Origin: Pseudomonadota bacterium
Lineage (GTDB): Bacteria; Myxococcota; Myxococcia; Myxococcales; Myxococcaceae
DNA length: 64,000 nt
Assembly (NCBI GenBank): GCA_023423535.1
Contig: JAFAFL010000097.1
Coordinates: 1-64,000 of the forward strand
Direction of reading: 5' to 3'
Part shown: piece by piece, positions 2,659 through 28,082 of the stretch
Layout of the letters: each line of letters opens with the position of its first letter
Position numbering within the stretch: position 1 is the first letter of the stretch
Made by a program: the position numbers and the translations under genes
The notes under the pieces: generated by a model
Told to the model about the DNA's origin: nothing
The model's input: only the letters and a program-made list of their open reading frames with translations
Database searches by the model: none

Positions 2659-4034
2659 CGTGCGCTCTCCTGCGCCTTCAGCTCGAGAGCGGCACGCGCC
2701 ACCGCTCGACCGGCCCGCGCTCCGGAATCCGCCGCCGCGCCGGCGCTCCCTCCGCCCACCAGATCTCCCGCCACGAACACGTCCTCCGCCGCCGTGCGGC
2801 CCTCCGCATCCGCGACGACCACGAAGGTCTCGCGCGCGGGATCGAAAAGGACCTCCGCACCGCCCTGGCGCGCGAGCTCATACGCCGGCGAGGGCGGCAG
2901 GCACACCGCCACCGCGTCGCAGTCCGTGCGGTGTTTCTTGCCCTTCGCGTCTCGCCAGCTGAGGCCCTTCACCTCGGTCCGCCCGTGCACGGTGAGCGGC
3001 TCGGCGCCGCGATCCACGAGCACCTCCGCCTTCACCTCCGCGCCCGCAGCGACGAGCAGGCGACGCTGATTCGCTACCCACTCTTCCGTTCCCACGAGCG
3101 CGAACTTCGTCCCCGGCAAGTTCGCCTCGCGCCGCACGAGCCTCGCCACCGCTCGCCCCGCCATCACGCCCGGCACGTCGTTGTTGTCGAAGGGCCACAG
3201 CGCCGCGTGCCCGCCGTTCGCGAGGAGGAAGCGCTCCGCGTACACCTTCAACAGCCGCGGGCCACGGCCGGCATCTCCGCCACCGAACGACACCGCCGCG
3301 AGGTAGCGCCCCTCCGCATCCGAGAAGAGGCCGATGACCACCGTCTTCAGCCGCAGCGACTCGGCGGGCAGCGATGCGGTGAACGCGGTGACGGGCGGAT
3401 CCTTCTCCGCCGGCGCGTCGTCGAGCAGCCGGCCACCGGGCGTCTCCTCGCGATCGATCAGCAGGAACTTCACGCCCGCGTTCACCAGCTCCCGCGCAGC
3501 GGCAAGGCCTGCGGGTCCTGCGCCCATCACGACCACCGGCACCTTCACGGTCTCCCGCGGCGCTCGCTCGGGCGGCAAGGCGTCGGGCAGCTCGCCGAGC
3601 CCCGCCAGGTGCCGCGCCACGCGCGCCATGACCTTCTCCGCCACCGGCACGCCCGCAAACATCTCGTGGTGGTCGAGCCCCTTCGGGAAGAGCCAGTCGA
3701 TGGCCCCGAACACGTCGTGCTTCACCGACGGGTAGGCGTTCTGGCGCTCCACCCTCATGCCCGCGGTGATCTTCGTGCGGCAGGTGAAGACGTTGGGCAC
3801 GCCGTTCACGCGCATGAGGCACTGCGAGCACGCCGCGCTCATGCACCAGGGACCTCGCGGCCGGTGGTACTTCACCGAGCGGGAGAAGACGGTCTCACCC
3901 GCTGCGAGGAGGGCCGACGCGATCGACTCGCCCTCCTTCGCGGGGAGCGCGGTCCCTTCGAAATCGAACTGCACGGTGCGGGGGGGCACATCGAGGCGGG
4001 GCATGCGGCGGCGGAACCTATGCGAGGCCCTCAC
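2655..4034 (-). CDS. HcnA/HcnB-like fusion: sarcosine-oxidase-alpha-type 2Fe-2S N-domain plus FAD/NAD(P)-binding oxidoreductase
   Basis: Cys-rich N-domain (CMSAACSQC...FTCRT); dinucleotide fold VVVMGAGPAGLAAAREL; start may be the internal M at aa 11. Confidence 0.65.
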   Translation of the reverse strand: MRASHRFRRRMPRLDVPPRTVQFDFEGTALPAKEGESIASALLAAGETVFSRSVKYHRPRGPWCMSAACSQCLMRVNGVPNVFTCRTKITAGMRVERQNAYPSVKHDVFGAIDWLFPKGLDHHEMFAGVPVAEKVMARVARHLAGLGELPDALPPERAPRETVKVPVVVMGAGPAGLAAARELVNAGVKFLLIDREETPGGRLLDDAPAEKDPPVTAFTASLPAESLRLKTVVIGLFSDAEGRYLAAVSFGGGDAGRGPRLLKVYAERFLLANGGHAALWPFDNNDVPGVMAGRAVARLVRREANLPGTKFALVGTEEWVANQRRLLVAAGAEVKAEVLVDRGAEPLTVHGRTEVKGLSWRDAKGKKHRTDCDAVAVCLPPSPAYELARQGGAEVLFDPARETFVVVADAEGRTAAEDVFVAGDLVGGGSAGAAADSGARAGRAVARAALELKAQESAR

Positions 4035-4089
4035 GGGCCGCTACTGCCGAGCCTTGCCCCCGGACGCCGGACGGGTAGGGTGCGCGCCC

Positions 4090-5727
4090 ATGAGAGACGC
4101 CAACCTCCGCATCCCCCAGCCCGCCAACGAGCCGATCCTCGCCTACGCCCCCGGCTCGACGGAGCGCGCGCAGCTGAAGGCGCAGCTGACGAAGATGGCC
4201 GGCGAGCAGCTCGACATCCCGCTCTTCATCGGCGGAAAGGAGATCCGGACCTCACGCACCTCGAACGTGAAGATGCCGCACGCGCACCGGCACGTGCTGG
4301 CGAAGTACAGCCTCGCGGACGCGGAGCACGTGACCCAGGCGATCGACGCTGCGCTGAAGGCGAAGCGCGACTGGTCGAACATGCGCTTTCACGACCGCGC
4401 GGCGATCTTCCTGCGCGCGGCGGATCTGCTCGCCACCCGCGTGCGCCCGGTGCTCAACGCGGCGACGATGCTCGGTCAGTCGAAGACCGCGTTCCAAGCG
4501 GAGATCGACTCGGCCTGCGAGCTCATCGACTTCCTCCGCTGGAACGTCCACTTCGCGGACAAGCTCCTCGCCGAGCAGCCCCACTCGCCGGCGCTGACCT
4601 GGAACCAGATGGACTACCGGCCGCTCGACGGGTTCGTGTACGCGATCTCGCCGTTCAACTTCACCGCCATCGGCGGGAACCTGCCCACCGCGCCGGCGCT
4701 GATGGGCAACACGGTGGTGTGGAAGCCCGCGCAGACCGCCACCTTCTCCAACTGGCTCATCCTCGAGATCCTCCGCGAGGCCGGCCTGCCGGATGGGGTG
4801 ATCAACTTCGTGCAGGGTGATCCTTCGACCGTGTCGAACACGATCATCGCGCACCCGGATCTGGGCGGCATCCACTTCACCGGCTCCACCTCCGTGTTCC
4901 AGATGATGTGGCGGCAGGTGGGCGAGAACATCTCCCGCTACCGTCAGTACCCGCGGCTGGTGGGCGAGACCGGCGGCAAGGACTTCGTCTTCGCGCACCC
5001 GTCCGCGAAGGACGACATCGACGCGCTGGCGGTGGCGCTCGGGCGCGGCGCGTTCGAGTACCAGGGCCAGAAGTGCTCGGCGGCGTCGCGCGCGTACATC
5101 CCCGCGAGCCTCTGGCCCCAGCTGCGCGACCGGCTGGTGGGCCTCATCGGCGAGATCAAGATGGGCGATGTGCGCGACTTCCGGAACTTCATGGGCGCGG
5201 TGATCGACGAGAAGGCGTTCGACAAGCACATGGGCTACTTCGCCGCGGCGAAGAGCGATCCCTCGATGAAGATCCTCACCGGCGGCGAGGGCGACAAGCG
5301 CGAGGGCTTCTTCGTGCAGCCCACGCTGATCGAGTCCTCCGACCCGAAGAGCCGGCTCATGTGCGAGGAGGCCTTCGGGCCCATCCTCACCGTGCACGTG
5401 TACGAGGACGCGCGCTACGAGGAGGCGCTGAAGCTGTGCGACGAGTCCACGCCCTACGCGCTCACCGGCGCCTTCTTCGCCCGCGACCGCGCGGCGATCG
5501 TCAAGGCCAGCGAGGCGCTCCGGCACGCGGCGGGCAACTTCTACATCAACGACAAGCCCACCGGCGCCGTGGTGGGGCAGCAGCCCTTCGGTGGCTCGCG
5601 CGCGTCGGGCACCAACGACAAGGCCGGCAGCGCGTGGAACCTCATGCGCTGGGTCTCGCCGAGGGCGATCAAGGAGACCTTCGTCCCGCCCACGCAGCTG
5701 GGCTACCCGTTCATGGGTGAAGAGTAG
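4090..5727 (+). CDS. pruA: L-glutamate gamma-semialdehyde (1-pyrroline-5-carboxylate) dehydrogenase
   Basis: Aldehyde dehydrogenase fold with catalytic EYQGQKCSA and FTGST motifs; P5CDH-like length (546 aa); ATG at 4090 chosen by homology extent. Confidence 0.8.
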   Translation: MRDANLRIPQPANEPILAYAPGSTERAQLKAQLTKMAGEQLDIPLFIGGKEIRTSRTSNVKMPHAHRHVLAKYSLADAEHVTQAIDAALKAKRDWSNMRFHDRAAIFLRAADLLATRVRPVLNAATMLGQSKTAFQAEIDSACELIDFLRWNVHFADKLLAEQPHSPALTWNQMDYRPLDGFVYAISPFNFTAIGGNLPTAPALMGNTVVWKPAQTATFSNWLILEILREAGLPDGVINFVQGDPSTVSNTIIAHPDLGGIHFTGSTSVFQMMWRQVGENISRYRQYPRLVGETGGKDFVFAHPSAKDDIDALAVALGRGAFEYQGQKCSAASRAYIPASLWPQLRDRLVGLIGEIKMGDVRDFRNFMGAVIDEKAFDKHMGYFAAAKSDPSMKILTGGEGDKREGFFVQPTLIESSDPKSRLMCEEAFGPILTVHVYEDARYEEALKLCDESTPYALTGAFFARDRAAIVKASEALRHAAGNFYINDKPTGAVVGQQPFGGSRASGTNDKAGSAWNLMRWVSPRAIKETFVPPTQLGYPFMGEE

Positions 5728-5892
5728 GGGACCACGCGGCAGGGCAGGGTCCGCAGAGGGAGACGGCGGGTCCAGGAGTTGGACCGCGCCAGCGCTGAGG
5801 CACTTGGAATCATTGACCTTTTGTGGTGGCGGCGCCCGTGCAGGGCGCCTGGTCGCGAGGCCCTCGCGCCTCGCGTCACCCCTGAGGTCCAC

Positions 5893-7113
5893 ATGTTCTC
5901 CGCTCCCCGCGTCGCGGCCGTTCTCCTGCTGACCCTGACCCTCTTTGCGTGCGGGGACAACGAGCGTCCACCGCCTCCGCCTCAGTACGACCCCTACAAC
6001 CCGCCCCCGGGGACCGGAGGAACACAGGGCGGTGGCGGCTCGAATCCGGTTCGCGATGCCGGGTCCGGCGTGAACGATCAGCGGGATGCTGGCGCCTGCA
6101 CTCCTTCCTGTTGGGGTCGCACCTGTGGGCCGGACGGCTGCGGCGGCTCGTGTGGCACGTGTGCACCGAACCAGGCCTGCTCCAGCGAAGGTCAGTGCGC
6201 CTGCGTCCCCAACTGCGCGGGCAAGCAGTGCGGCTCGGATGGCTGCGGCGGCTCCTGTGGCACGTGTGGACCCAACCAGGCATGTACGAGCGCCAACCAG
6301 TGCGTGTGTGTCCCCCAGTGCAACGGCAAGCAGTGCGGTTCGGACGGCTGCGGTGGCTCGTGCGGGGCGTGTGGACCGAATCAGGCCTGCAGCGGCGCGA
6401 ACCAGTGCGTGTGCGTCCCCAACTGCGCGGGCAAGCAGTGCGGCTCGGATGGCTGCGGCGGCTCCTGTGGGACGTGCGCCACGAACCAGGCGTGCAGCAA
6501 CGCCAACCAGTGCGTCTGCGTTCCCCAGTGCAACGGCAAGAGCTGCGGTCCGGACGGGTGTGGCGGGCAGTGCGGCACCTGTCCCCCCAACTCCACCTGC
6601 AACGGCAGCGGGACCGGCTGCACATGCCTGCCCGGGTACGTGCCCAACCCGCAGGGCACCGGATGTCTCAAGGTCGGCGGCGCCTGTGGGGGCGTCAGCC
6701 AGTACGGCTACTGCAGCGGTGACAGCTGGGTGCGGTGCGACGCGACGGCGGGCATCGTGGTCATGCCGTGCGGCGCCGGTCAGTGCAGGACGATCAACGC
6801 CCAGGGCGAAGGCGCCTGCCGGTGCGGGGGCGTCACCCAGAGCGGTGTCTGCGCCGCTGCGGACGGGACACAGGGAAACACCTCGCTGTTCTGGTGTGCC
6901 ACGGCCTTCGACATCCTCGTGGCCACCAACTGCAAGCAGGAGACGGGATCCTCGGCGGGCTTCTGCTCGACCTTCGTGACCTCCTTCGGCTGGGAGAACC
7001 AGTGCTACTGCAACACCTGCTCGTACCAGCTGGGCAACACCTGCCAACCCCTGTGCAGCGGGAGCTCCACGTGCAGCTACAACGCGCCGGGGAACTTCCA
7101 CACGTGCAACTAG
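5893..7113 (+). CDS. Lipoprotein composed of six tandem ~40-aa cysteine-rich repeats (Myxococcales-type Cys-rich repeat) plus a C-terminal Cys-rich domain
   Basis: Signal peptide with lipobox LTLFAC; repeated CGxDGCGGSCGTCxxNQACSxxxQCxCVPxCxGKQ units. Confidence 0.75.
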   Translation: MFSAPRVAAVLLLTLTLFACGDNERPPPPPQYDPYNPPPGTGGTQGGGGSNPVRDAGSGVNDQRDAGACTPSCWGRTCGPDGCGGSCGTCAPNQACSSEGQCACVPNCAGKQCGSDGCGGSCGTCGPNQACTSANQCVCVPQCNGKQCGSDGCGGSCGACGPNQACSGANQCVCVPNCAGKQCGSDGCGGSCGTCATNQACSNANQCVCVPQCNGKSCGPDGCGGQCGTCPPNSTCNGSGTGCTCLPGYVPNPQGTGCLKVGGACGGVSQYGYCSGDSWVRCDATAGIVVMPCGAGQCRTINAQGEGACRCGGVTQSGVCAAADGTQGNTSLFWCATAFDILVATNCKQETGSSAGFCSTFVTSFGWENQCYCNTCSYQLGNTCQPLCSGSSTCSYNAPGNFHTCN

Positions 7114-7165: not shown

Positions 7166-7990
7166 TTGCCGCACCCGCCCTCCGCGTGGTCCACTTCGCG
7201 CGTGGCCACCTTCCTCGCGCTGGCGTTCGCGTTCCCGACCGTGATCTTCACCACGCTCCTGCTGGTGATGCTCGGGTACTGGGCCCTGGTGCTCCTCGGC
7301 GGAGGGCTCTTCGGCGCGGACGGTGCGTTCGAGGCGAAGGCCTCCGCGCTCGAGGGCGCAATGGGCGCAAAGGAGGGCGCGCTCGAAGCGGCGGTGGGCG
7401 CGAAGGCCGGTGCGCTGGAGGCGGCAGTCGGCGCGAAGGAGGGCATGCTCGCGTGGCTCGGCTTCGGCAGCGTGCCTGCCTCGGTGGTGCTCACCGCGCT
7501 GGTGGGCTGGGCCTGGACCTTCTCCATGATCGGCTCGGCGACGCTCGGCCCCACGCTGGGCGGCTGGATGCCGGCGTGGATGCTCAACGGGGCGTTGGCG
7601 CTCCTCTCGCTCACGCTCGGCCTGCTGCTCGCCGGCATCAGCGCGAAGCCGCTCAAGCCGCTCTTCACCCTCCGCGCGGCGCCCACGCGGAGGCAGTTGC
7701 TGGGCAAGGTCGCCACGGTGGCCACGAGCCGGGTGGACGGCACCGGCCGCATGGGCCAGGTCACGCTGGAGGACGGCGAGGCCGGCTTCCTCCTCTCCGT
7801 CTTCTGCGCGAAGGACAACGCGCTGAAGAAGGGCGACCGGGTGCTCTTGCTCGAGTACGACGACGTCAAAGAGGCCTACGAGGTCGAGCCGGTCGAGTGG
7901 CTGCTCCCCGAGGAGCTCTCCCGCCTCGACAACCCTCTCGCCGCCGAGGCCATCGCGCGCGCGCACCTGAAGCAGCGCGTGGACGCCTAG
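7166..7990 (+). CDS. YqiJ/NfeD-like inner-membrane protein (flotillin partner) with internal Ala/Gly-rich 9-aa repeats and a C-terminal OB-fold
   Basis: TM segments; five copies of GAKEGALEAAV; NfeD-like C-terminus (GDRVLLLEYDD...YEVEPV); directly upstream of a flotillin gene as in yqiJ-yqiK/yuaF-floT. Confidence 0.55.
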   Translation: MPHPPSAWSTSRVATFLALAFAFPTVIFTTLLLVMLGYWALVLLGGGLFGADGAFEAKASALEGAMGAKEGALEAAVGAKAGALEAAVGAKEGMLAWLGFGSVPASVVLTALVGWAWTFSMIGSATLGPTLGGWMPAWMLNGALALLSLTLGLLLAGISAKPLKPLFTLRAAPTRRQLLGKVATVATSRVDGTGRMGQVTLEDGEAGFLLSVFCAKDNALKKGDRVLLLEYDDVKEAYEVEPVEWLLPEELSRLDNPLAAEAIARAHLKQRVDA

Positions 7991-8114
7991 CTTCCTGCCT
8001 GGCCGCCCATTGAATCTGCGCAGTCCGGCTTGATACGAAGCGGACACTTTTTTGCCTCTCCGCAGTCCCCGTTTTCTCAGTCCTCGCAGTCACTCCCCCA
8101 GGAGCTTCACGCAC

Positions 8115-10142
8115 ATGGAAACCCTCCCCGAGCTCGCCGGACCGGTGGCCATCCTCGCCGGCGGCGGCCTGACCTTCCTCGCCGGCTTCGCGTGGATCAC
8201 CGTGAAGCTCTACCGAAAGGTCGATCAGGGCCGCGCGCTGATCATCAACCGCATGCGGGACGTGAAGGTCACCTTCAACGGCGGCATGGTCATCCCGGTC
8301 GTCCACCGCGCCGAGTTCATGGACATCTCGCTGAAGACCATCGAGATCGACCGCAAGGGCAAGGAGGGCCTCATCTGCCAGGACAACATCCGGGCGGACA
8401 TCAAGGTCACCTTCTTCGTGCGCGTGAACAAGACGCAGGAGGACGTGCTGAAGGTGGCGCAGTCCATCGGCTGCGCGCGCGCCTCCGACCAGAAGACGCT
8501 GGAGCAGCTCTTCGTGGCGAAGTTCTCCGAGGCCCTGAAGACCGTGGGCAAGCGGCTGAACTTCGAGTCGCTCTACGCCGAGCGCGACCACTTCAAGGAG
8601 CAGATCATCAACGTCATCGGCAAGGACCTCAACGGGTACACGCTCGAGGACGCGGCGATCGACTACCTCGAGCAGACGCCGATCGAGTTCCTCGACAAGG
8701 ACAACATCCTCGACGCGCAGGGCATCAAGAAGATCACCGAGCTCACCGCGCACCAGAACGTGCTGACGAACGACTTCCGGCAGGAGGAGCGGAAGGCGAT
8801 CACCAAGCAGAACGTGGAGGCGAACGAGGCGGTGCTCGCGCTCGAGCGCCAGCAGTCGGATGCGGAGGCGAAGCAGCGCCGCGAGGTGGAGACGGTGCGC
8901 GCCCGCGAGCTGGCGGAGACGGAGCGGGTGAAGAGCGAGGAGCACGCCCGCGCGCAGCTCGCCCGCATCAAGGCGGAGGAGGAGATCCTCATCAACGAGC
9001 AGAACAAGATGAGGCAGATCGAGGTCGCGCAGAAGAACCGCGAGCGCATCGTCGGCATCGAGGCGGAGAAGGTCGCGAAGGACAAGCAGCTCGAGGCGAT
9101 CTCGCGTGAGCGCGAGGTGGAGCTGAACCGGATCGCGAAGGAGAAGGCGCTGGAGGTCGAGCGCAAGGCGATCGCGGACGTGGTGCGCACGCGCATCGTC
9201 GTCGACAAGTCGGTGGCGGAGGAGGAGGAGAAGATCAAGGACCTCCGCGTCCGGGCCGAGGCGACCCGGCAGAAGGACGCGGCGGTCATCCACGCCGAGG
9301 CGGAGGCGCAGGAGCACCTCGTCAAGGAGATCAAGGCGGCGGAGGCCTCCGAGGAGGTCACGAAGATCGACGCGCGGAAGAAGCTGCTCACCGCCGAGGC
9401 GGACCTCGAGGCCGCGGACCGCAGCGCGCGCGCGAAGATGCGGCTCGCCGAGGGCATCCAGGCGGAGAGCGCGGCGAAGGGCCTCGCCGAGGTGCGGGTG
9501 AAGGAGGCGGACGCGCTCGCCACCGAGAAGCAGGGCCTGGCGGAGGCGCGGGTGGAGGAGCAGAAGGGCCTCGCGCTGGTGAAGGTGCAGGAGGCCGAAG
9601 CGGTCGCGATCCAGAAGCGCGGCGAGGCCGAGGCGGACGCCATCCAGCAGAAGCTCGAGGCGGAGGCGCGCGGTCTGGCGGAGAAGGCCACCGCGATGAA
9701 GGCGCTCGACGGCGTGGGCCGCGACCACGAGGAGTTCCGGCTCAAGCTCGAGAAGGAGAAGGCGGTGGAGCTCGCCGCGATCGACGTGCGCCGTCAGATC
9801 GCCGAGGCGCAGGCGAAGGTCATGGCCGAGGCCATGGGCAACGCGAAGATCAACATCGTCGGCGGCGACGGCCAGTTCTTCGAGCGCTTCGTGAAGGCGG
9901 TCTCGCTCGGCCAGTCGATGGACGCGGCGATCGATCAGTCCCAGTCGATGCAGACGTTCTTCAAGGACTACCTCTCCGGCCAGAAGAGCCTGCCGGACGA
10001 CCTGAAGGACATCCTCTCGCGGCCGGGCCTCACCGGTGACGCGCAGAACGTGGCGCTGACCGCGCTGCTGGCGAAGATGGCGCAGCAGCCCACGGTGCCG
10101 CTGGCGCAGCAGCTGAAGAACGTGGTCGATCCCGCGAAGTAG
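8115..10142 (+). CDS. Flotillin-like SPFH/band-7 protein with a long EA-rich coiled-coil tail (YqiK/FloT family)
   Basis: N-terminal TM, SPFH core (RALIINRMRDVKVTFNGGMVIPVVHRAEFMDISL), roughly 400 aa of heptad-rich coiled coil. Confidence 0.8.
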   Translation: METLPELAGPVAILAGGGLTFLAGFAWITVKLYRKVDQGRALIINRMRDVKVTFNGGMVIPVVHRAEFMDISLKTIEIDRKGKEGLICQDNIRADIKVTFFVRVNKTQEDVLKVAQSIGCARASDQKTLEQLFVAKFSEALKTVGKRLNFESLYAERDHFKEQIINVIGKDLNGYTLEDAAIDYLEQTPIEFLDKDNILDAQGIKKITELTAHQNVLTNDFRQEERKAITKQNVEANEAVLALERQQSDAEAKQRREVETVRARELAETERVKSEEHARAQLARIKAEEEILINEQNKMRQIEVAQKNRERIVGIEAEKVAKDKQLEAISREREVELNRIAKEKALEVERKAIADVVRTRIVVDKSVAEEEEKIKDLRVRAEATRQKDAAVIHAEAEAQEHLVKEIKAAEASEEVTKIDARKKLLTAEADLEAADRSARAKMRLAEGIQAESAAKGLAEVRVKEADALATEKQGLAEARVEEQKGLALVKVQEAEAVAIQKRGEAEADAIQQKLEAEARGLAEKATAMKALDGVGRDHEEFRLKLEKEKAVELAAIDVRRQIAEAQAKVMAEAMGNAKINIVGGDGQFFERFVKAVSLGQSMDAAIDQSQSMQTFFKDYLSGQKSLPDDLKDILSRPGLTGDAQNVALTALLAKMAQQPTVPLAQQLKNVVDPAK

Positions 10143-10169
10143 CCAAGGCTCTCAGAGAGGCACAACGAC

Positions 10170-13100
10170 ATGGCGGCCGAGACCCCTCACGCGGCACAGC
10201 CGGCGGGAGGGGCCGGGCAGGAGCACCTCGAGGGCGGCAGCTACGAGGTCATCCGCGCGCGGCTCCTTTCGCATGCAAAGGAGCTCGGGCTCCGCGCGGA
10301 CGCGCTGAACGACCGGCGCAAGCAGCTCTTCCGGGGCCAGGAGCTGGCGGTCCTCGGCAACGAGCGCGTGCGCACCGAGAACAACTGCGTCCCGTGCGAC
10401 CTCGTCGCCATCGGGCGGCACGTGCTCTTCGGGTACAACGTCTTTCTCGGGCTGAAGAGCGAGACGAAGGTCTCGGACGTGCTGTCGCTCCACAAGTTCG
10501 AGCCCACGAGCGAGGGCGGGTTCGACCTGTCGGAGGTCTCGACGGCGGAGGCTGGCGGGTTCCTCGCGGACGCGCGCTTCATCCGCGAGTTCGGCGAGCT
10601 CTACCGCTACTACAAGGGCACGCGGCTCGTGCAGCTGCGCCGTCCCGAAGGCCGGCTGTTGATGGTCTTCCAGGTGGGCGAGAGCGCGCGGGACGTGAAG
10701 GTGTTCCGCTTCGCGGTCGATCCGAACGGCAACGCCACCTACATCGACAACGCGGGCGAGCGCGAGAACGTCTATCCCGCGTCGCACGACTTCGAGTGGA
10801 CCGCCACCGGCCGCGACCAGTTCGTGCGCGGCATCCACCCCCACGTGAACATCCTCGACGAGGTCTTCGTGGAGACGGTGGGCGGCGACCTCACCGTCAA
10901 GGTCGAGAACAACACCCAGGACGGGCAGGGCATCTACTCCGAGCCGGTGGAGGACAGGAGCCAGTCGCTCGACGACGCGCAGATCCACTACGCGAAGGTC
11001 GGCACGCTCATCCTCCTCAAGGTGCTGCCCTTCCGCGAGCAGCAGTGGCGCTACCTCGTGTTCAACACGCGGTCGCGGCAGGTGGTGCGGATCGACGCCA
11101 TCGGCCAGGCGTGCGTGCAGCTGCCGGAGGATCAGGGGATCATCTTCCCCGGCGGCTATTACCTCCAGACCGGCGACTACAAGGTCTTCGACGCGGATCC
11201 GTCGGGCCTGATGATGAAGCGGGTGCGCAAGTCTCCGAACGGCGAGGACGTGCTCTACGTCTTCCATCGCCGCGAGGACGGGCACTACACGCTGCTGCCC
11301 TACAACCTCGTGCGCCGCGAGGTCTCGAACCCCATCCACTGCCACGGCTACTCGCTCTTCGACGACGGGAAGATGGTGCTCTTCCGGTCCACCTCCGACG
11401 AGCCGGCGCGCGTGCACCCGATGCAGGTGTGGCAGACGCCGTTCGTCAGCGTCGAGCACGCGGCGGCGGTGGTGCCGCAGGACGGCTCGTACCTGACGAA
11501 GGTGGGCAACGCGGATCTGGTGCGCGGGATCAGCGAGGCCTACACGCTCAAGCGCATCGCCGAGCAGGACGCGCCCACGCGGAGGACGTACGAAGACCTC
11601 ATCGCGCAGGCCGGCCGGATGGCGGACGCCTACTACTGGCTCGGCCACGACGAGGTGGGGCTGCTGCAGCGGGTGGAGGAGCTGCGCAAGACCGCGGACC
11701 TCATCGTCGGCGAGTTCGAGAAGGTCCAGGCGCTGAAGGCGAAGGCGCGCGCGGTGGTGCAGGAGGCGGAGGCGCAGCAGCGCGCGATCGTCGAGGGGCT
11801 GCGGCCGGAGTCGCTCGCGTCCGTCGACGAGTTCATGGAGAAGCTGGGGGCGCTGCGCAACCAGCGCGGGCACCTCATCACCCTGCGCGAGGTCCGCTAC
11901 GTCGATCTGGCGAGGCTGACCGAGCTGGAGAAGGAGGCCTCCGCCCACTTCGACGCGGTGAGCGTGGCGTGTGTGGAGTTCCTGCTCGGCGCGCAGGCGC
12001 TGGCGCCGCTGACGGCGAAGCTCGAGGAGCTGTTCGCCCAGGGCAAGCGGGTGGAGCGCTCCGCGGAGCTGAAGCCGCTGACGGAGGAGCTGGAGAAGAC
12101 GGGCCACGGGCTCGACGTGCTCGGCGAGGTGGTGGGGCAGCTGCAGGTGGGAGACCCCGTCGCGCGCGCGGCGATCCTCGAGGGGATCAGCGAGGTCTTC
12201 AGCCACCTCAACCGCGTCCGCGCGTCGCTCGCGTCGCGGAGGAAGGAGATCCTCGGGCGCGAGGGCAAGGCGGAGTTCGGCGCGCAGTTCAAGCTGCTGG
12301 GCCAGGCGATCGAGAGCGCCATCGGCCAGTGCGACACGCCGGAAAAGTGCGACGAGCAGCTGTCGCGGCTGACGGTGCAGCTGGAGGAGCTCGAGGGCCG
12401 CTTCGGCGAGTTCGACGAGTTCATCGCCGACCTCGCGAAGAAGCGCGAGGAGCTCTACGAGGCCTTCGGCGCGAAGCGGCAGCAGCTGCTCGACGAACGG
12501 CAGCGGCGGGCGCAGAACCTCTTCGGCGCGGCGGAGCGGATCCTCGCCGGCGTCTCGCGGCGCGCAGAGAGCTTCAAGACCGAGGACGAGCTCAACGCCT
12601 ACTTCGCGTCCGACGCGATGGTGCACAAGGCGCGGCAGATCAGCGAACAGCTGATGGCGCTCGGCGACTCGGTGCGCGCGGACGAGCTGCAGTCGAAGCT
12701 CAAGCAGGCCCGGCAGGACGCGGCGCGGGTGCTGCGCGACAAGAAGGAACTCTTCGAGGACGGGCAGAGCGTCATCAAGCTCGGCGCGCACCGCTTCAAC
12801 GTCAACACGCAGGCGCTGGAGCTCACCGTCGTGCCGCGCGAGGGCGGCCTTTCGCTCCACCTCACCGGCACCGACTTCTTCGAGAGCATCAGCGATCCCG
12901 CGCTCGCCTCCACGCGCGAGTACTGGGACCAGCACCTCGTCAGCGAGACGCCGGAGGTGTACCGGGCGGAGTACCTCGCGGCCTCCATGCTCTTCGACGC
13001 GGAGGAGGGACGGGGAGGGCTCTCCATCGCGGCGCTGCGCGAGGCACACCTGGGCGGCGAGGCGGCGGTGCTCGCGCGGGTCCGGGCGTACGCGCAGGAC

Positions 13101-15971
13101 CGCTACGACGAGGGCTACGAGCGCGGCGTCCACGATCACGACGCGGCCCGCGTGCTCGAGGCGTTGCTCGCGCTGCGCGACGGCGCGGGCCTCTTGCGCT
13201 TCCCGCCTTCTGCACGCGCGAACGCGCAGCTCTTCTGGGCCTTCGGTGGAGACGAGGCCGCGCGGGCGCTCTGGCACCGGCGCGCAGTGAGCCTCGGGCG
13301 GCTGCGCGAGTCGCTGCAGCGGGCGGCGGCGCTCTCCGCGCTGGCGGAGGAACTCTCCGCTCCCATCGCGCAGTTCCTCCAGACCGCGCGCGTGGCCGCT
13401 TCACAAGAGGAGGCGAAGCTGTCCGCGCGGTACCTCGTGGAGGAGCTGGTGGCGGAGGCGCCGCGCTTCGTCACCGCGCAGGCCTCGCAGGCGTTGGCGG
13501 GGGCGTTCCTCGGTCACCTGGACCGCGTGGGGACGCGCCGCGCGTTCGAGGACGACCTCAGGCTGCTCGCGGGCCGCGTGTCTGAACGCCTCGCGCTGGC
13601 GACGGAGTGGCTCCAGGGCTTCGTGGAGGCCACGAACGTCCGCGTGGACCGCATCGGCGCCCAGGCGACCGGCGGCGGCCTCGACGCGCTGCTCGCCGAA
13701 GAGCGCCACGTGCTCCCCGAGGCGGTGGCGGTGCTGCTGACGGAGGGCGCGCTCACCCGCGACCTCTCCTCGGCGCGCGTGACGGCCGAGGTTGCAGGGC
13801 TTCTCGGTGCGCATCCCCGGGTGCGTGACGGGAAGCTCGCGCTGTCGCTCGACGAGTTCTCGGCGCGGCTGTTCCGCTTCGCACAGGTGCGCGTGCCGGG
13901 CTACCGCGCCTTCCGGGCGGGCCTGAGGGATCTGCTCGAGCGCGAGCGGCGGCGGCTGAAGCTCGACGAGATGCAGCCGAAGATCCTCTCGTCCTTCGTG
14001 CGCAACCGGCTCATCGGCGAGGTGTACCTCCCGCTCATCGGGCAGAACCTCGCGAAGCAGCTCGGCGCGGCGGGCGACACCAAGCGCACCGACCGGATGG
14101 GCCTTCTGCTCATCGTCTCGCCGCCGGGCTACGGCAAGACGACGCTCATCGAGTACGTGGCGGCGCGGCTCGGGCTGGTGTTCGTGAAGGTCAACGGGCC
14201 CGCGCTGGGGCACGACGTGACCTCGCTCGATCCCGCGGAGGCGCCGAACGCGGCGGCGAGGCAGGAGGTCGAGCGGATCAACCTCGCCTTCGAGATGGGG
14301 AACAACGTGCTGCTGTATCTGGACGACATCCAGCACACGTCCCCGGAATTGCTGCAGAAATTCATCTCCCTCTGCGACGGCCAGCGCCGCATCGAGGGCG
14401 TGTACAAGGGCCGCACCCGCACCTACGACCTGCGCGGGAAGAAGTTCGCGGTGGTGATGGCGGGCAACCCCTACACCGAGACCGGCGAGCGCTTCCGCAT
14501 CCCGGACATGCTCGCCAACCGCGCGGACACCTACAACCTCGGCGAGATCCTCGACGGCAAGGACGACCTCTTCGCGCTCAGCTACATCGAGAACGCGCTG
14601 ACGGCGAACACCGTGCTCGCGCCGCTCTCCGGCCGCGACCCGCAGGACGTGCACCGGTTCATCCGGATGGCGAAGGGCGAGGAGATCGCGCAGACGGACT
14701 TCGCGCACAACTACAGCGCAGTGGAGGTCTCCGAGATCGTCGCGGTGCTGCAGCGGCTCTTCCGCGTGCAGGAGACGCTGCTGAAGGTGAACCAGGCGTA
14801 CATCGCGTCCGCGTCGCAGGACGACAAGTACCGCACCGAACCGCCGTTCAAGCTCCAGGGCTCGTACCGGAACATGGCGAAGGTGACGGACAAGATCGTC
14901 GCCGCGATGACGCCGGACGAGGTCGAGCGCGTGCTCGACGATCACTACCAGGGCGAGTCGCAGGTGCTGACCGTCGGCGCGGAGCAGAACCTGCTCAAGC
15001 TCGCGGACCTGCGCGGCCGGCTCTCCGAGGCACAGCGTCAGCGCTGGGAGGAGATCAAGCGCAGCTATGCCCGCGTGCAGCTGATGGGCGGCTCCGAGGA
15101 CGATCCGGTGGCCCGGGTGACCGGTGGCCTCTCCGCGCTCAGCGGCGAGCTCTCCCACATCCGCGATGCGGTGATGCGGGCCGCGCAGTCGGCCTCGCAG
15201 ACCCAGCGGGAGCAGGCCGAGCGCACGCTGGAGCTGCTGAAGGCCGCGCAGGAGACGGCGGCCCAGGCGGCGAGAGCGGCGGAGAAGTCCCGCGCGGCGC
15301 CTCCGCCGCTGCCGACGGCGCAGGCCTCGTCGGGTTCGGCGGCCTCGCTCGACCCGAAGCTGATGGAGCTGTTGCAGACGCGGCTCGACGCGGTGGCGCG
15401 CGCGATGGTGGAGGTCGCGCGGATCGCGGCACGTCCTCCGCCGAAGCCCGAACCCGCAGCCGCGGCCGTCGTCCAGGCACAGGTCCAGCCCCAGCCCGCG
15501 CAGCCGCCGCAGCCTCAGGTGGATCTGACGCCCTACCTCGAGCGGCTGGAGAGCGTGCTCCGCGTGGTGGCTCAGCGCGCGGTGCAGCCGCCGCAGCAGC
15601 CCCAGCCGCAGCGGCCTTCTGCGGAGCCATCGGTGGATCTGTCGCCCTACCTCGAGCGGCTCGACGAGGTGCTGCGCGCCCTCGCCGAGCGCCCGCTGGC
15701 GGTGAACGCCGAAGCCCTGCAGCGCGCCGCGAGCCCTTCCGCCGCGCCGTCATCTTCAGGCCCGACGATCACCCCCGCGCACTACGACCGGCAGATCGAT
15801 CTGGTGCAGCGCGCGCTCGCCCCGCTGGCCCGCATCGCCCGGCGCACGCTGCGCGACGAGGGCGGCGGCTCCATCCGGTCCATCGAGGTCTGGCGTCACG
15901 TGAACGAGGCCCTCCAGTTGCTGCAGACCATCCCGCCGAACCCCGAGACGCCGCCGGAGACGAAGCCGTGA
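10170..15971 (+). CDS. Giant 1933-aa protein: beta-rich N-terminal region, long coiled-coil segments, embedded MoxR-type AAA+ ATPase module, C-terminal Pro/Gln-rich region with a duplicated ~35-aa motif
   Basis: Walker A GYGKTTLIEYVA, Walker B VLLYLDDIQH, sensor-1-like VVMAGNPYTE, Arg finger region RIPDMLANRAD (aa ~1190-1330); direct repeat VDLTPYLERLESVLR / VDLSPYLERLDEVLR; family unknown. Confidence 0.6.
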   Translation: MAAETPHAAQPAGGAGQEHLEGGSYEVIRARLLSHAKELGLRADALNDRRKQLFRGQELAVLGNERVRTENNCVPCDLVAIGRHVLFGYNVFLGLKSETKVSDVLSLHKFEPTSEGGFDLSEVSTAEAGGFLADARFIREFGELYRYYKGTRLVQLRRPEGRLLMVFQVGESARDVKVFRFAVDPNGNATYIDNAGERENVYPASHDFEWTATGRDQFVRGIHPHVNILDEVFVETVGGDLTVKVENNTQDGQGIYSEPVEDRSQSLDDAQIHYAKVGTLILLKVLPFREQQWRYLVFNTRSRQVVRIDAIGQACVQLPEDQGIIFPGGYYLQTGDYKVFDADPSGLMMKRVRKSPNGEDVLYVFHRREDGHYTLLPYNLVRREVSNPIHCHGYSLFDDGKMVLFRSTSDEPARVHPMQVWQTPFVSVEHAAAVVPQDGSYLTKVGNADLVRGISEAYTLKRIAEQDAPTRRTYEDLIAQAGRMADAYYWLGHDEVGLLQRVEELRKTADLIVGEFEKVQALKAKARAVVQEAEAQQRAIVEGLRPESLASVDEFMEKLGALRNQRGHLITLREVRYVDLARLTELEKEASAHFDAVSVACVEFLLGAQALAPLTAKLEELFAQGKRVERSAELKPLTEELEKTGHGLDVLGEVVGQLQVGDPVARAAILEGISEVFSHLNRVRASLASRRKEILGREGKAEFGAQFKLLGQAIESAIGQCDTPEKCDEQLSRLTVQLEELEGRFGEFDEFIADLAKKREELYEAFGAKRQQLLDERQRRAQNLFGAAERILAGVSRRAESFKTEDELNAYFASDAMVHKARQISEQLMALGDSVRADELQSKLKQARQDAARVLRDKKELFEDGQSVIKLGAHRFNVNTQALELTVVPREGGLSLHLTGTDFFESISDPALASTREYWDQHLVSETPEVYRAEYLAASMLFDAEEGRGGLSIAALREAHLGGEAAVLARVRAYAQDRYDEGYERGVHDHDAARVLEALLALRDGAGLLRFPPSARANAQLFWAFGGDEAARALWHRRAVSLGRLRESLQRAAALSALAEELSAPIAQFLQTARVAASQEEAKLSARYLVEELVAEAPRFVTAQASQALAGAFLGHLDRVGTRRAFEDDLRLLAGRVSERLALATEWLQGFVEATNVRVDRIGAQATGGGLDALLAEERHVLPEAVAVLLTEGALTRDLSSARVTAEVAGLLGAHPRVRDGKLALSLDEFSARLFRFAQVRVPGYRAFRAGLRDLLERERRRLKLDEMQPKILSSFVRNRLIGEVYLPLIGQNLAKQLGAAGDTKRTDRMGLLLIVSPPGYGKTTLIEYVAARLGLVFVKVNGPALGHDVTSLDPAEAPNAAARQEVERINLAFEMGNNVLLYLDDIQHTSPELLQKFISLCDGQRRIEGVYKGRTRTYDLRGKKFAVVMAGNPYTETGERFRIPDMLANRADTYNLGEILDGKDDLFALSYIENALTANTVLAPLSGRDPQDVHRFIRMAKGEEIAQTDFAHNYSAVEVSEIVAVLQRLFRVQETLLKVNQAYIASASQDDKYRTEPPFKLQGSYRNMAKVTDKIVAAMTPDEVERVLDDHYQGESQVLTVGAEQNLLKLADLRGRLSEAQRQRWEEIKRSYARVQLMGGSEDDPVARVTGGLSALSGELSHIRDAVMRAAQSASQTQREQAERTLELLKAAQETAAQAARAAEKSRAAPPPLPTAQASSGSAASLDPKLMELLQTRLDAVARAMVEVARIAARPPPKPEPAAAAVVQAQVQPQPAQPPQPQVDLTPYLERLESVLRVVAQRAVQPPQQPQPQRPSAEPSVDLSPYLERLDEVLRALAERPLAVNAEALQRAASPSAAPSSSGPTITPAHYDRQIDLVQRALAPLARIARRTLRDEGGGSIRSIEVWRHVNEALQLLQTIPPNPETPPETKP

Positions 15972-16846
15972 AGCCCCACACGAAGCGCGCCCTCGCTCTC
16001 GCCGGAGCCCTGGCGATGGGTGCACCGCTGTCAGGTTGCAGCGACAAGACGGAGCTCGCGGCGCTGGAGTCCGCGGTGCGCGAGCGCGAACTGGCCCTCG
16101 CCGAGCGTCAGGCGCTGGCGCAGAACCTCGGCGCGCTGAACCACGACGTCGCCGAGCTCGAGCGCGAGGTCGAAGGCGCGGGAGGCCTGCTCCAGCCGCA
16201 GACCGCGGCGGACGCCGTGCGACCGCACCTGCCGCAGGGCGTTGCGCTCGACGTGGCCGAGGGCGGCAAGCGGCTCGTCATCTGGGGCGGAGGAGGGGCC
16301 CCGTCGCTCACCGAGGTCGCCGAACGGCTCGCGCGGCACGTGCCCCTGGCAGTGGCCGAGAGCGCGGAGATCTCAGCGCCGCACTACCGGCTGGAGCTCG
16401 TGGTTGGTCAGGTGGAGGAGGCGGCACCGCAAGCCGAGCGCTCTTCGCCGCGCTCCTTCACGCAGCCGCCGCCCACGTCGTGGCGCAGCGGGAGCAAGAG
16501 CCGGGAGCTCCGCGCGCGCCTCGAGCAGATGGAGCGACAGCTCGCGGAGCTGGGAAAGGTGCTCGGTGGCGCGGACGAGCTGGTGGCGAAGAGGAGGGAC
16601 CTCGAGCAGCGCAAGCGGGCGCTCGCGGGCCTCGACCGCGCGGGCGAGTTCGGACCGCTGCTCGCGCGCGCGGTTTCGGCGGGGCAGCTGACGCAGGCGG
16701 TGTTCGGCTTCTCGCCCGGCTCGATGGTCCTCGAGATCCGGGAGGGCGGTGACGTCGCCGAGCTGGCGAAGGTGATGCAGGAGGAGGGGATGAAGGTCTC
16801 CACCGCCGCCGGGCCGCCGGCGAGGGTGGAGCTCTCCCGGCCGTAG
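15968..16846 (+). CDS. Lipoprotein with coiled-coil regions, translationally coupled to the giant ATPase gene
   Basis: GTG start overlapping the upstream stop (GTGA); signal peptide with lipobox LSGC. Confidence 0.55.
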   Translation: MKPHTKRALALAGALAMGAPLSGCSDKTELAALESAVRERELALAERQALAQNLGALNHDVAELEREVEGAGGLLQPQTAADAVRPHLPQGVALDVAEGGKRLVIWGGGGAPSLTEVAERLARHVPLAVAESAEISAPHYRLELVVGQVEEAAPQAERSSPRSFTQPPPTSWRSGSKSRELRARLEQMERQLAELGKVLGGADELVAKRRDLEQRKRALAGLDRAGEFGPLLARAVSAGQLTQAVFGFSPGSMVLEIREGGDVAELAKVMQEEGMKVSTAAGPPARVELSRP

Positions 16847-19017: not shown

Positions 19018-20337
19018 CTACACCGGCACCGCGGCCGGCAGCGGCGAGATGCCCGGCCTGCCGAAGCGCGTCCGCAGCACCGCGCCGAAGCCGCAGAAGG
19101 CGGAGGCGACGATCACCAGCGGCCCCAGCACCGGCACCTGCGCGACGACGAGGAGGATCACGAGCCCCAGCGCGAGCACCAGCGCCTGCGACTTCCGTCC
19201 GCGGAAGACCGGGATGCGCGCGCCGAGCTCCAGCGCCACCGCCGCGAAGCCCACGCCGACCGAGAGGAACGCGACCGGCCACAGCACCAGCAGCGCGATG
19301 GGGATGCCCACGATGGTGACGAGCAGCAGCACCGTCAGCGGCACCAGCGCCACCGTCGCCGCCAGCCCCACCGCAGCGGAGACTCCCGGCGCGCGGCGGA
19401 TCTGCTTCTGCACGACCTTCATCCGTTCCGGCGCCATCATGCTGGCCACGAAGCCGACGACGAAGAGCGTGGCGAACCAGGAGAGGAAGTTCGCGGCGCG
19501 GGTGCGGGTGTCCTCCACCTCCTCGCGCGCGTCCTCCCGACGATCGTCGCTGTCTTCACCGGCGTCCTCGGAGGACGGGGCGCTCGTCACGGCAGGCGGC
19601 GTGGGCGTGACCACCGAGGCCCCCGGCGCGGACTGCATGGCGGAGGGGGCAGGGGATTCGTCGGGCTCGACCATCCGCATGGAGCCGATGGTCCGCACCT
19701 GGCCGTCGATGCGCGCACCCCGATGCCGCAGCACCGAGCCGCCGAAGGTGTCCACGTTGCCTCCCACACGCGCGGTGGGCATGAGCTCGAGCTCGCCGCC
19801 GAAGACGGTGACGTTGCCGGTCACCCGCCCGTCGATCCGCGCCGAGCCGCCGTACACCACGACCTTCTCCACGCTCTCGTCCGCGGTCACGTGCAGCGAG
19901 CGCCCGAAGGTCACCCGCGCCGGTCCGGCCGTCCCATCCGCCGGCGCGGCCGCATCCGTCTGGTCCACCGCAGGGGCCGGAGTCGCAGCAGCAGCAGCGG
20001 CCTGCCCGCCACGCGCGCGCACCGTCCAGATCGAGCCCTGCTGGTCGAGCTCCAGGTCCCAGCCCTTCGCCAGCGTCCGCAGCGCCTCCTCCGCGGTCAC
20101 GTCCTTCAGGTGGAGCTCCGCCGGCGCATCGAGCGTTCCCTGCACCGCGAGGTTGAGACCGCCCTCGCGCGCGATGGCCCGAAGCAGCTCCGCCACCGTG
20201 CCGCGCTCGCTGAGGGAGATGCGCGCCTGACCCGACTGTTCCTGCACCGGCGGCGGCTCGTCTCCCTGAGCGCCCGCTGCGCCCGCCGCCGCGACGCTGA
20301 CGATCAGCGCGCCGGCCACCCACACTCCCGTCTTCAC
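19018..20337 (-). CDS. Membrane protein with periplasmic beta-solenoid (DUF4097/LiaG-like) domain, acidic linker and C-terminal multi-TM region; third gene of the ECF module
   Basis: GTG start overlapping the anti-sigma stop (GTGA); signal peptide; repeats VTGNVTVFGGELE / VGGNVDTFGGSVL; C-terminal hydrophobic helices. Confidence 0.55.
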   Translation of the reverse strand: MKTGVWVAGALIVSVAAAGAAGAQGDEPPPVQEQSGQARISLSERGTVAELLRAIAREGGLNLAVQGTLDAPAELHLKDVTAEEALRTLAKGWDLELDQQGSIWTVRARGGQAAAAAATPAPAVDQTDAAAPADGTAGPARVTFGRSLHVTADESVEKVVVYGGSARIDGRVTGNVTVFGGELELMPTARVGGNVDTFGGSVLRHRGARIDGQVRTIGSMRMVEPDESPAPSAMQSAPGASVVTPTPPAVTSAPSSEDAGEDSDDRREDAREEVEDTRTRAANFLSWFATLFVVGFVASMMAPERMKVVQKQIRRAPGVSAAVGLAATVALVPLTVLLLVTIVGIPIALLVLWPVAFLSVGVGFAAVALELGARIPVFRGRKSQALVLALGLVILLVVAQVPVLGPLVIVASAFCGFGAVLRTRFGRPGISPLPAAVPV

Positions 20338-20834
20338 GCGCGCACCCTCCGCGACACCGGCGTCCAGAACCTGCGCGCCGCCACCGCGAGCACCATCAGC
20401 GTCACCGCCGCCGCGACCGTCACCGGCAGCGCAGCGGTCTCCCACACCACGAGGGCGGCCTCACCCGCGGCCTCGAAGAGCTCCCGCGCGCCCACCGCCC
20501 ACTCGGCAACGCGCTGGCCCCACGCGCCCGCGGTGGCCGCGTCCGAACCGACGAGCACCACCACGCCCGCGAGCGCGGCGGCGACGATGCCGGCAAAGGA
20601 GAGCCACTCGCGTCCGGCGGGGACCGGCTGGGCCTCCACGCGCGCCATCACCTGGTGCACGAAGTCCGGCGGCGGCAGCGGGTCCGACAGGCGGAGGAGG
20701 TCCTTCTCCAGCTGCCGGTGCTCCTCCACCAGGGCCGCGCACGCGTCACACTCCGCGAGGTGCGCGCGGGCCTCCGGCGCTTCCTCCGCGAGCCCCACGA
20801 ACAGCGCCTCCGCATCCGGACAGGGGCGGTTCAC
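20334..20834 (-). CDS. Anti-sigma factor (zf-HC2 type) with TM segment
   Basis: HLAECDACAALVEEH motif (H-x3-C-x2-C); overlaps sigma gene stop by 4 bp. Confidence 0.7.
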   Translation of the reverse strand: MNRPCPDAEALFVGLAEEAPEARAHLAECDACAALVEEHRQLEKDLLRLSDPLPPPDFVHQVMARVEAQPVPAGREWLSFAGIVAAALAGVVVLVGSDAATAGAWGQRVAEWAVGARELFEAAGEAALVVWETAALPVTVAAAVTLMVLAVAARRFWTPVSRRVRA

Positions 20835-21493
20835 GCGGTCTTCTCCTCGCTCTGCTGCATGCGGTTGCGCAGCTTCTCACGCGCCCGGAACAGGCGCGCC
20901 ATGATGGTGCCGGGCGCCACGCCGAGCAGCCCGGCGATCTCCTTCGTGGTGCGCTTCTGCACGTAGTACAGCGCGAGCACCTCGCGGTCGTCCGCGGAGA
21001 GCGTGGCCATGGCCGTCTCCAGCGACAGGCGCTCCTGCCGCGCGATGGCGTCCTCCTCCTGGCTGCGCTCGCCGGAGGGGAGGACCTCGCGCAGGTCGTC
21101 CACGCTCTCCTGCGAGGTGCGGCCGCGGCGGCGCAGGATGTCCAGACAGAGGTTCCGCGCGATCGCCAGCACCCAGAGATCGAAGGGCCGGTTCTCGTCG
21201 TAGCGCGCGAGGTTCTGGTAGGCGCGCAGGAAGGTCTCCTGGGCCACCTCGGAGGCCTCGGCCTCGTTGGAGAGCAGGCGAAGGCAGAGTCCGTACACGG
21301 GCCGCTGCACGCTGCGCACGAGCGAGGCGAACGCGCGCCCGTCGCCCTTGCGCGCGGCGAGCACGTCCGCCTTCCACGGCGTCGAAGGGGCCTCGTCGGT
21401 CACGCCGAACGGCGACAGGGAGGAGAAGGGCAACAGCCTGGCGAGGAGCGCGGTCACTTCAGCCCATACGCACTGCCGCCCGCTCGATTGCAT
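20831..21493 (-). CDS. ECF-subfamily RNA polymerase sigma-70 factor
   Basis: Region 2 (FASLVRSVQRPVYGLCLRLL...AQETFLRAYQNL) and region 4 (TTKEIAGLLGVAPGTIMARLFRAREKLR); true start probably internal. Confidence 0.8.
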   Translation of the reverse strand: MQSSGRQCVWAEVTALLARLLPFSSLSPFGVTDEAPSTPWKADVLAARKGDGRAFASLVRSVQRPVYGLCLRLLSNEAEASEVAQETFLRAYQNLARYDENRPFDLWVLAIARNLCLDILRRRGRTSQESVDDLREVLPSGERSQEEDAIARQERLSLETAMATLSADDREVLALYYVQKRTTKEIAGLLGVAPGTIMARLFRAREKLRNRMQQSEEKTA

Positions 21494-28040: not shown

Positions 28041-28082
28041 CTTCGAACACAACTGGATTTTTCAGCAAAGGTAAGCTGTCCT

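Follow-up and report, generated by a model that had tools for sequence, protein, structure and literature searches.

A divergent YqiJ/flotillin pair and a giant AAA+ protein are encoded together across bacterial phyla

We studied a locus in a 64-kb stretch of DNA (~70% GC) from a myxococcal genome, assembly GCA_023423535.1 (contig JAFAFL010000097.1, positions 1 to 64,000). We will call this whole stretch the window. At positions 7166-16846 of the window, four genes encode a membrane protein related to YqiJ, a flotillin-like protein, a 1933-amino-acid protein with an AAA+ ATPase module (the giant), and a lipoprotein. The first three genes form one translationally coupled cassette, which is co-inherited as an operon across phyla. 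In the loci compared, the giant is hardly ever encoded without this dedicated subfamily of flotillins, and the cassette is unusually well conserved; both of these findings are new in this analysis. The lipoprotein gene is a recent, lineage-specific addition that lies outside the conserved core. The features of the locus are as follows.

7166-7990, + strand: YqiJ/NfeD2-like inner-membrane protein, with three transmembrane segments, a variable linker rich in acidic residues and alanine, and a C-terminal OB-like beta domain
8052-10142, + strand: flotillin-like SPFH scaffold, with an N-terminal transmembrane anchor, an SPFH domain, a long coiled coil rich in glutamate and alanine, and a conserved C-terminal segment
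10170-15971, + strand: giant cytoplasmic AAA+ protein of 1933 amino acids, from the DUF3686/DUF7902/AAA family, named "DNA repair ATPase" by NCBI
10347-11435, + strand: beta-propeller-like domain of the giant (amino acids 60-422), preceded by a long helix (amino acids 23-54)
11451-13859, + strand: helical and coiled-coil middle of the giant (amino acids 428-1230), including DUF7902 (amino acids 609-693)
14103-15119, + strand: AAA+ module of the giant, with its core at amino acids 1312-1456 and a lid and helical domain that extend to about amino acid 1650
15267-15968, + strand: C-terminal tail of the giant, rich in alanine, proline and glutamine, with repeated short helical motifs such as DLTPYLERLESVLRVVAQRA and DLSPYLERLDEVLRALAERP
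15968-16846, + strand: lineage-specific coiled-coil lipoprotein with the lipobox LSGC, whose start overlaps the end of the giant in a GTGA

A preliminary description of this DNA had given these four open reading frames and the short gap between 10142 and 10170. The list of reading frames and the GC content at third codon positions (GC3) agree with it: GC3 is 0.96, 0.97, 0.95 and 0.90, in gene order, and the overlapping alternative frames have no such coding signal. Just 27 nucleotides separate the stop codon of the flotillin-like gene (10142) from the ATG of the giant (10170), and a Shine-Dalgarno-like GAGAGG lies between them. The overlap of the last two genes, which had been described as well, can be seen in the sequence, as the GTG of the lipoprotein at 15968 runs into the TGA of the giant at 15969-15971. 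The flotillin-like gene is likely to start at the ATG at 8115, which is preceded by AGGAG, and to encode 675 amino acids. Similarly, the first gene may start at the GTG at 7202 (262 amino acids), which is where its orthologs begin. A scan for promoters found no promoter-like sites, and terminator-like sites were found on the minus strand only, at the level expected by chance.

When one genome of each species was scanned, at least 595 species (a lower bound) from several phyla proved to encode a relative of the giant. The 80 best-scoring loci span the Myxococcota, Actinomycetota, Gammaproteobacteria, Acidobacteriota, Planctomycetota, and Eremiobacterota, and plasmid records extend the range of the giant to Deinococcus and Hymenobacter. 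Gene neighborhoods were compared across 82 related loci, which are these best-scoring 80 of at least 595 and two more that had been fetched earlier; upstream sequence was available for 79 loci. Of these, 78 have a flotillin-like gene on the strand of the giant and upstream of it. In 77 of the 79, the two genes are directly adjacent, with a gap of at most 462 nucleotides and often with a 4-bp overlap. A YqiJ-like gene precedes the flotillin-like gene in about 73 of 76 loci (the cluster of YqiJ-like proteins contains 73 other loci and the window). No further gene is conserved around these three across the window and its 82 related loci. So, homologs of the giant do not lie mostly elsewhere, and the flotillin linkage that the preliminary description proposed for this one locus holds across phyla.

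There are two exceptions to the adjacency. In locus L019 (4053-9348), the flotillin-like gene is separated from the giant by genes for OmpA/TSP3, DUF11, and laminin-G-like surface proteins. In locus L068 (7533-9968), the giant directly follows an aldehyde dehydrogenase, and neither a YqiJ-like nor a flotillin-like gene is present.

The same linkage is seen on plasmids. Of the plasmid-database records, 13 carry the giant; the same 13, and no others, match the flotillin-like protein over its full length, with the two genes side by side in each. The weaker flotillin matches in this database are all to ordinary YqiK-type genes, without the giant. The cassette is found on large plasmids such as pQBR103 and on plasmids of Streptomyces, Deinococcus, and Hymenobacter, and it is patchy within genera. 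We found no giant in phage records and no DNA-level match in complete E. coli genomes.

The giant also diverges in step with the flotillin-like protein: across 63 loci, their pairwise distances are correlated (r = 0.92). Their maximum divergence across phyla is 56% of aligned positions for the giant and 58% for the flotillin-like protein, and the identity of the cassette across phyla is about 45-60%. This low divergence points to strong purifying selection on the cassette.

The preliminary description had called the first two genes a canonical NfeD/YqiJ-flotillin pair. The identification as YqiJ and flotillin stands, by comparison of profiles, but the pair is divergent rather than canonical. 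Neither copy in the window has a Pfam match at our limit of E ≤ 0.01. With the limit raised to E ≤ 10 for these two proteins, the sole match of the YqiJ-like copy is to YqiJ_N (E = 0.34), and the flotillin-like copy has no match, including to Band_7 or Flot. Searches of Pfam, NCBIfam, and PDB sequences with these two proteins gave nothing usable. Since the flotillin-like copy has no Pfam match, its membership in the family rests on profile-profile homology. We built profiles from orthologs and compared them with hhalign to a YqiJ/flotillin pair from an E. coli plasmid. The flotillin-like profile (18 orthologs) matches the canonical flotillin with a probability of 99.9% (E = 2.2e-33, 415 columns). 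The E. coli reference itself hits Band_7 (6e-19) and Flot (1.3e-38), and four of the 18 orthologs hit Band_7 directly, at best with 6e-13. PGAP names the orthologs "flotillin family protein" or "SPFH domain-containing protein". A search of PDB sequences with the profile of the 18 orthologs found none at E ≤ 0.1. The single transmembrane segment of the window's protein is at amino acids 7-29.

The evidence for the YqiJ-like protein is similar. A hydropathy scan gave its three transmembrane segments, and an alignment with 14 orthologs contains a conserved C-terminal motif. Its profile matches E. coli YqiJ, which contains YqiJ_N and YqiJ_OB, with a probability of 89.7% (E = 1.8e-6).

The lipoprotein had been proposed as a further member of the operon. 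It is indeed translationally coupled to the giant in the window and in L086, the closest relative: the L086 lipoprotein is 51% identical to the window's and has the same 4-bp overlap, and the giants of these two loci are 80% identical. It is absent everywhere else. Another relative, L085 (70% identical), lacks it and otherwise keeps the flanks, with an aldehyde dehydrogenase (Aldedh) upstream and an extracytoplasmic function (ECF) sigma factor and TruD downstream, and the lipoprotein is missing from all 82 other loci. These flanking housekeeping genes in the window are syntenic with those of L085.

The giant belongs to a large family, with more than 7500 homologs, most of which are named "DNA repair ATPase" by NCBI. 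DUF3686 is found at the N-terminus of all of the members (in the window's protein, 3.4e-202 at amino acids 39-489), and DUF7902 follows (8.6e-24 at amino acids 609-693). Further on, AAA and AAA_5 are above their Pfam cut-offs at amino acids 1313-1439, and AAA_22 and RuvB_N also match. Full-length members have 1600-2036 amino acids, and shorter entries look like fragments; the homologs from Actinobacteria and Gammaproteobacteria are on the shorter side (about 1600-1820 amino acids). We found no transmembrane segment in the giant. In three homologs from Sorangium and Chondromyces (P0087, P0099, and P0115), an extra PilZ domain (PF07238) precedes the rest of the protein, which hints at an input of cyclic di-GMP into the system in those lineages.

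Structural models were built for amino acids 1-690 and 1230-1667 of the giant, from alignments of proteins of lower diversity. In the N-terminal model, a helix (amino acids 23-54) is followed by beta strands (amino acids 60-422) and then by helices from amino acid 428 to the end of the model at 690. This agrees with the beta-rich N-terminus and the coiled-coil stretch of the preliminary description. A profile of the N-terminal 690 amino acids found no solved relative by sequence, and fold searches with the model return beta-propellers. Specifically, Foldseek with amino acids 1-690 (10170-12239 in the window) returned proteins in which a propeller is joined to a helical region, including the terminal domain and linker of the clathrin heavy chain, IFT-A (intraflagellar transport complex A), and nucleoporins, with low TM-scores. 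We take this likeness to coat-type proteins to be an architectural resemblance only. At the other end, the last 273 amino acids are rich in alanine, proline, and glutamine, where a Pro/Gln-rich tail had been noticed before; this tail is variable, with a weak repeat consensus in the homologs from Myxococcota.

The AAA+ core lies at amino acids 1312-1456. The preliminary description had put it at about 1190-1330, and all four of the motifs that it quoted are present at the later position (GYGKTT at 1320, DDIQH at 1385, AGNPYTE at 1431, and RIPDMLANRAD at 1443). In 18 orthologs from several phyla, the Walker A motif GYGKTT (with Lys 1323) and the Walker B motif LLYLDD (with Asp 1385 and Asp 1386) are invariant, and so are the candidate sensor-1 residue Asn 1433 and the candidate arginine finger Arg 1451. 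Because these catalytic residues are invariant, the giant looks to be an active ATPase.

The type of AAA+ module is less clear-cut. The model of amino acids 1230-1667 (predicted local distance difference test, pLDDT, of 78.6) has an AAA+ fold. It contains a beta-hairpin (strands 178-183 and 186-191), the pre-sensor-1 hairpin, which lies between the strands of Walker B and sensor 1. The position of a helix-2 insert, between strand 2 and helix 2, holds an 18-residue loop without a hairpin. The Foldseek neighbors of the model are RuvB, NorQ and CbbQ (TM-scores of 0.53-0.59, normalized to the target), and MCM. In a profile search of PDB, of which we considered the best 60 matches, only the Walker A region aligns, to Rix7, NVL, p97, and RuvB. 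The module had been described as MoxR/RavA-like, and the hairpin and the superposition on NorQ and CbbQ fit with that, but AAA_3, which is Pfam's model of the MoxR core, does not match the giant, there is no MoxR protein among those 60 matches, and RuvB is equally near. Our models suggest that the module resembles NorQ/CbbQ and RuvB and is not a Vps4-type AAA, which is also new in this analysis. The absence of a partner with a VWA domain, which had been noted for this locus, extends to its relatives: there is no VWA gene among the nearby window genes that were scanned or among the conserved neighbors in the 82 loci and the window.

In Gammaproteobacteria, the cassette has additional neighbors. 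Genes for YjfI (CesT/Tir-like) and a YjfJ-type PspA lie immediately upstream of the cassette in L054, L055, L070, L077, L080, and L082 and on pQBR103. A gene for a rhomboid-family intramembrane protease immediately follows the giant in six gammaproteobacterial loci (L054, L055, L067, L071, L074, and L077). On pQBR103, from Pseudomonas fluorescens SBW25, a single strand encodes YjfI, PspA, the rhomboid protease, DUF2491, DUF350, DUF1190, and a glutathionylspermidine-synthase-like protein, and the run continues with the YqiJ-like gene, the "SPFH domain-containing protein", and the "DNA repair ATPase". Here the rhomboid gene (L083, 2427-2981) is upstream of the cassette, in the same operon-like run. 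We take this gene set to resemble the yjf cluster of E. coli, which encodes a PspA paralog.

The preliminary description had stated that a flotillin linked to a giant AAA+ protein is not a described system. This did not hold up: Ravi et al. 2024 (mSystems, PMC11237479) described operons that encode a CesT/Tir-like protein, PspA, a band-7/flotillin protein, a beta-propeller AAA+ ATPase, and a YqiJ/YuaF-like protein with three transmembrane segments. They reported a wider distribution for abbreviated operons that lack PspA, noted that the ATPase is present "in some cases", and proposed chaperone-like and membrane-dynamics roles from gene context. As judged by the protein architectures and by the gammaproteobacterial loci, the operon type is the same, and so the association was already known computationally. 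Our literature searches for DUF3686 and PF12458 found no paper that mentions either.

We propose that the cassette is a module for membrane stress or membrane remodelling, in which the giant docks on a membrane platform and remodels the scaffold, PspA polymers, or clients. We consider this reading to be fairly probable, given the gene linkage, the identity of the parts, the conservation, and the YjfI, PspA, and rhomboid context; Ravi et al. 2024 independently drew the same inference from context. The YqiJ-like and flotillin-like proteins would build an oligomeric platform on the cytoplasmic side of the inner membrane. Through its AAA+ module, the giant would oligomerize, and it would contact this platform via its propeller and coiled coil. 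ATP hydrolysis could then remodel, disassemble, or load the scaffold itself, PspA-type polymers, or clients that are held there, and the platform and the giant together would serve an envelope-stress or membrane-maintenance response. There are parallels to such a mechanism in FtsH, which sits inside cages of HflK/C, and in Vps4, which acts on ESCRT-III. More tentatively, a bacterial flotillin cage might have the giant as its dedicated motor, which would dock on the SPFH assembly and use ATP to assemble, disassemble, or reshape both it and PspA polymers.

Some observations weigh against these proposals. Since the loci that we studied are the best 80 of at least 595, the rate of adjacency might be lower among the more distant members. 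A search of the 64-kb window with tblastn (E ≤ 1e-4) found neither YjfI nor a YjfJ-type PspA, and so the window carries an abbreviated form of the operon. In the giant, the Walker B motif ends in DD instead of DE, and the loop at the position of pore loop 1 lacks an aromatic residue, so a threading mechanism is not assured. Also, our literature searches found no experimental work on this operon type.

The giant could instead be a maturation chaperone of the MoxR kind, which would assemble or activate one specific complex or enzyme that is held by the flotillin platform, without remodelling the scaffold or the membrane. The pre-sensor-1 hairpin in the model, the match to AAA_5 above its cut-off, and the best superpositions by coverage of the target, which are on NorQ and CbbQ, are what one would expect of such a protein. 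Flotillins are also commonly seen as chaperone-like platforms (PMC11222466). But the Foldseek E-values are equally good for RuvB and NorQ, AAA_3 does not match, and the best 60 matches in PDB include no MoxR protein. Neither a VWA partner nor a candidate client gene is conserved beside the cassette. We consider this explanation unlikely.

We are also doubtful that the cassette serves as a mobile module in conflict or phage defense, sensing the perturbation of the membrane during infection and triggering a response. Its patchiness within genera, its presence on large plasmids, and the variation of its flanking genes by lineage would suit such a role, and PspA-type systems respond to secretin stress from phages. 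However, none of the defense-system models in PADLOC-DB 2.0 had a significant match: the giant's hits were to LmuB (6.6e-4, in the coiled coil) and to mad8 (0.009), and the other three proteins had none. We found no effector domain (nuclease, toxin, or pore) in the three proteins of the cassette. The absence of the giant from phage records and the housekeeping flanks, which are shared with the 70%-identical relative, also argue against this idea, and the very high conservation across phyla is unlike that of defense genes, which evolve quickly.

Finally, it is very improbable that the giant is a DNA repair ATPase and that the flotillins are incidental neighbors: the points in favor are its names ("ATPase involved in DNA repair" for DUF3686 in Pfam, and NCBI's name) and weak matches to RuvB that are limited to the Walker A region, but we found no DNA-binding, nuclease, or SMC/ABC head domain in the giant, its ATPase has the AAA+ fold, unlike SbcC or RecN with their ABC fold, its scores for NCBIfam's RuvB models are 17-19 bits versus cut-offs of 282-299, and its obligate partners are two membrane proteins. 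The preliminary description had allowed that the giant might turn out to belong to a well-characterized family such as a DNA repair ATPase; we found this to be a database name with no supporting feature, a further point that is new here. The name probably derives from the similarity of the coiled coil to SMC-like proteins, and the match to LmuB is consistent with this. The name has been widely propagated and is probably misleading.

It is still disputed what bacterial flotillins do, and their function is not defined by any enzymatic partner. The cassette ties a dedicated subfamily of flotillins to an AAA+ protein of 1600-2000 amino acids, and in Gammaproteobacteria it ties them to PspA as well. 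If the giant does act as the motor of a flotillin assembly, then this would be an uncharacterized class of membrane-remodelling machine, as well as an enzymatic partner that defines the function of a bacterial flotillin. The cassette is a tractable entry point into the mechanism of SPFH scaffolds, as its carriers include cultivable bacteria such as P. fluorescens SBW25 (with pQBR103), Proteus mirabilis, Streptomyces, and Myxococcus.

We also made some observations about other genes in the window. In three loci from Myxococcota, the cassette is preceded on its own strand by an aldehyde dehydrogenase (3757-5727 in the window, 401-2038 in L085, and 7533-9236 in L068), which may reflect either local synteny or a functional link. 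In the window, the aldehyde dehydrogenase is separated from the cassette by an open reading frame at 5779-7113 (+ strand, 444 amino acids) with an intermediate GC3 (0.84) and no match in Pfam. This frame may have been over-called, because the corresponding interval in L085 holds other reading frames, namely a protein of the polyhydroxyalkanoate (PHA) granule region and a frame of 60 amino acids. Downstream, at 19018-21493 on the minus strand, a protein of 475 amino acids with a weak match to bactofilin comes after the ECF sigma factor (20831-21493), and this arrangement is syntenic with L085. The 475-amino-acid protein is a possible anti-sigma factor. Farther away, positions 25920-31420 include a low-GC island (GC of 0.56-0.58, versus about 0.70 elsewhere), and the last gene before the island encodes a Ser/Thr protein kinase (25920-28040, + strand). 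The island encodes a protein of 947 amino acids with WD40 repeats and a Roc/Ras-type GTPase (28083-30926, + strand) and a TIR-domain protein of 171 amino acids (30905-31420, + strand), which overlaps the end of the GTPase gene. The island looks like a horizontally acquired candidate for a conflict or signalling module.

How does the cassette compare to known systems? As in YqiJ-YqiK of E. coli and YuaF(NfeD2)-FloT of B. subtilis, a gene for a membrane protein with an OB fold comes first and the flotillin second, and the flotillin has an N-terminal membrane anchor, then SPFH, then a coiled coil, with homology by profile comparison. In contrast, the canonical pairs have no ATPase gene (L087 is an example), and the window's proteins are divergent (about 29-31% identical) and individually below detection by Pfam. 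The window's flotillin-like protein is also longer, with an expanded coiled coil rich in glutamate and alanine.

Two other systems couple an SPFH scaffold functionally to an AAA+ machine at the membrane: HflK/C with FtsH, and prohibitins with the m-AAA protease. We use them as a working analogy for the mechanism. No homology to the giant is implied beyond the AAA+ fold: FtsH is an AAA+ protease from the classical clade and is anchored in the membrane, while the giant has no transmembrane segment or protease domain and has a pre-sensor-1 hairpin. With the MoxR family (NorQ, CbbQ, and RavA), the giant shares a single AAA+ module, the pre-sensor-1 hairpin, and its best target-normalized superpositions (NorQ and CbbQ). 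Unlike them, it lacks a VWA partner, a match to AAA_3, and a clear helix-2 insert, and its module is embedded at amino acids 1312-1456 of 1933, behind a propeller and a coiled coil.

ESCRT-III/Vps4 and the AAA+ proteins that are associated with PspA offer another comparison. In the gammaproteobacterial form of the operon, the gene for the ATPase is linked to PspA, which belongs to the ESCRT-III superfamily, and a remodelling role has been proposed. But we found no MIT domain in the giant, its module is not a Vps4-type classical AAA, and the window has no PspA, nor does the cassette in most phyla.

The closest relative is the operon of Ravi et al. 2024 (PMC11237479). The architectures of the three proteins are the same, and the full form of that operon, with orthologs of the window's proteins, is found on pQBR103 and in other gammaproteobacterial loci. 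The window differs in having no adjacent YjfI or PspA and in having the extra lipoprotein. Also, where the ATPase was reported as an occasional member of the operon, we see from the other side that the giant itself almost always comes with its flotillin.

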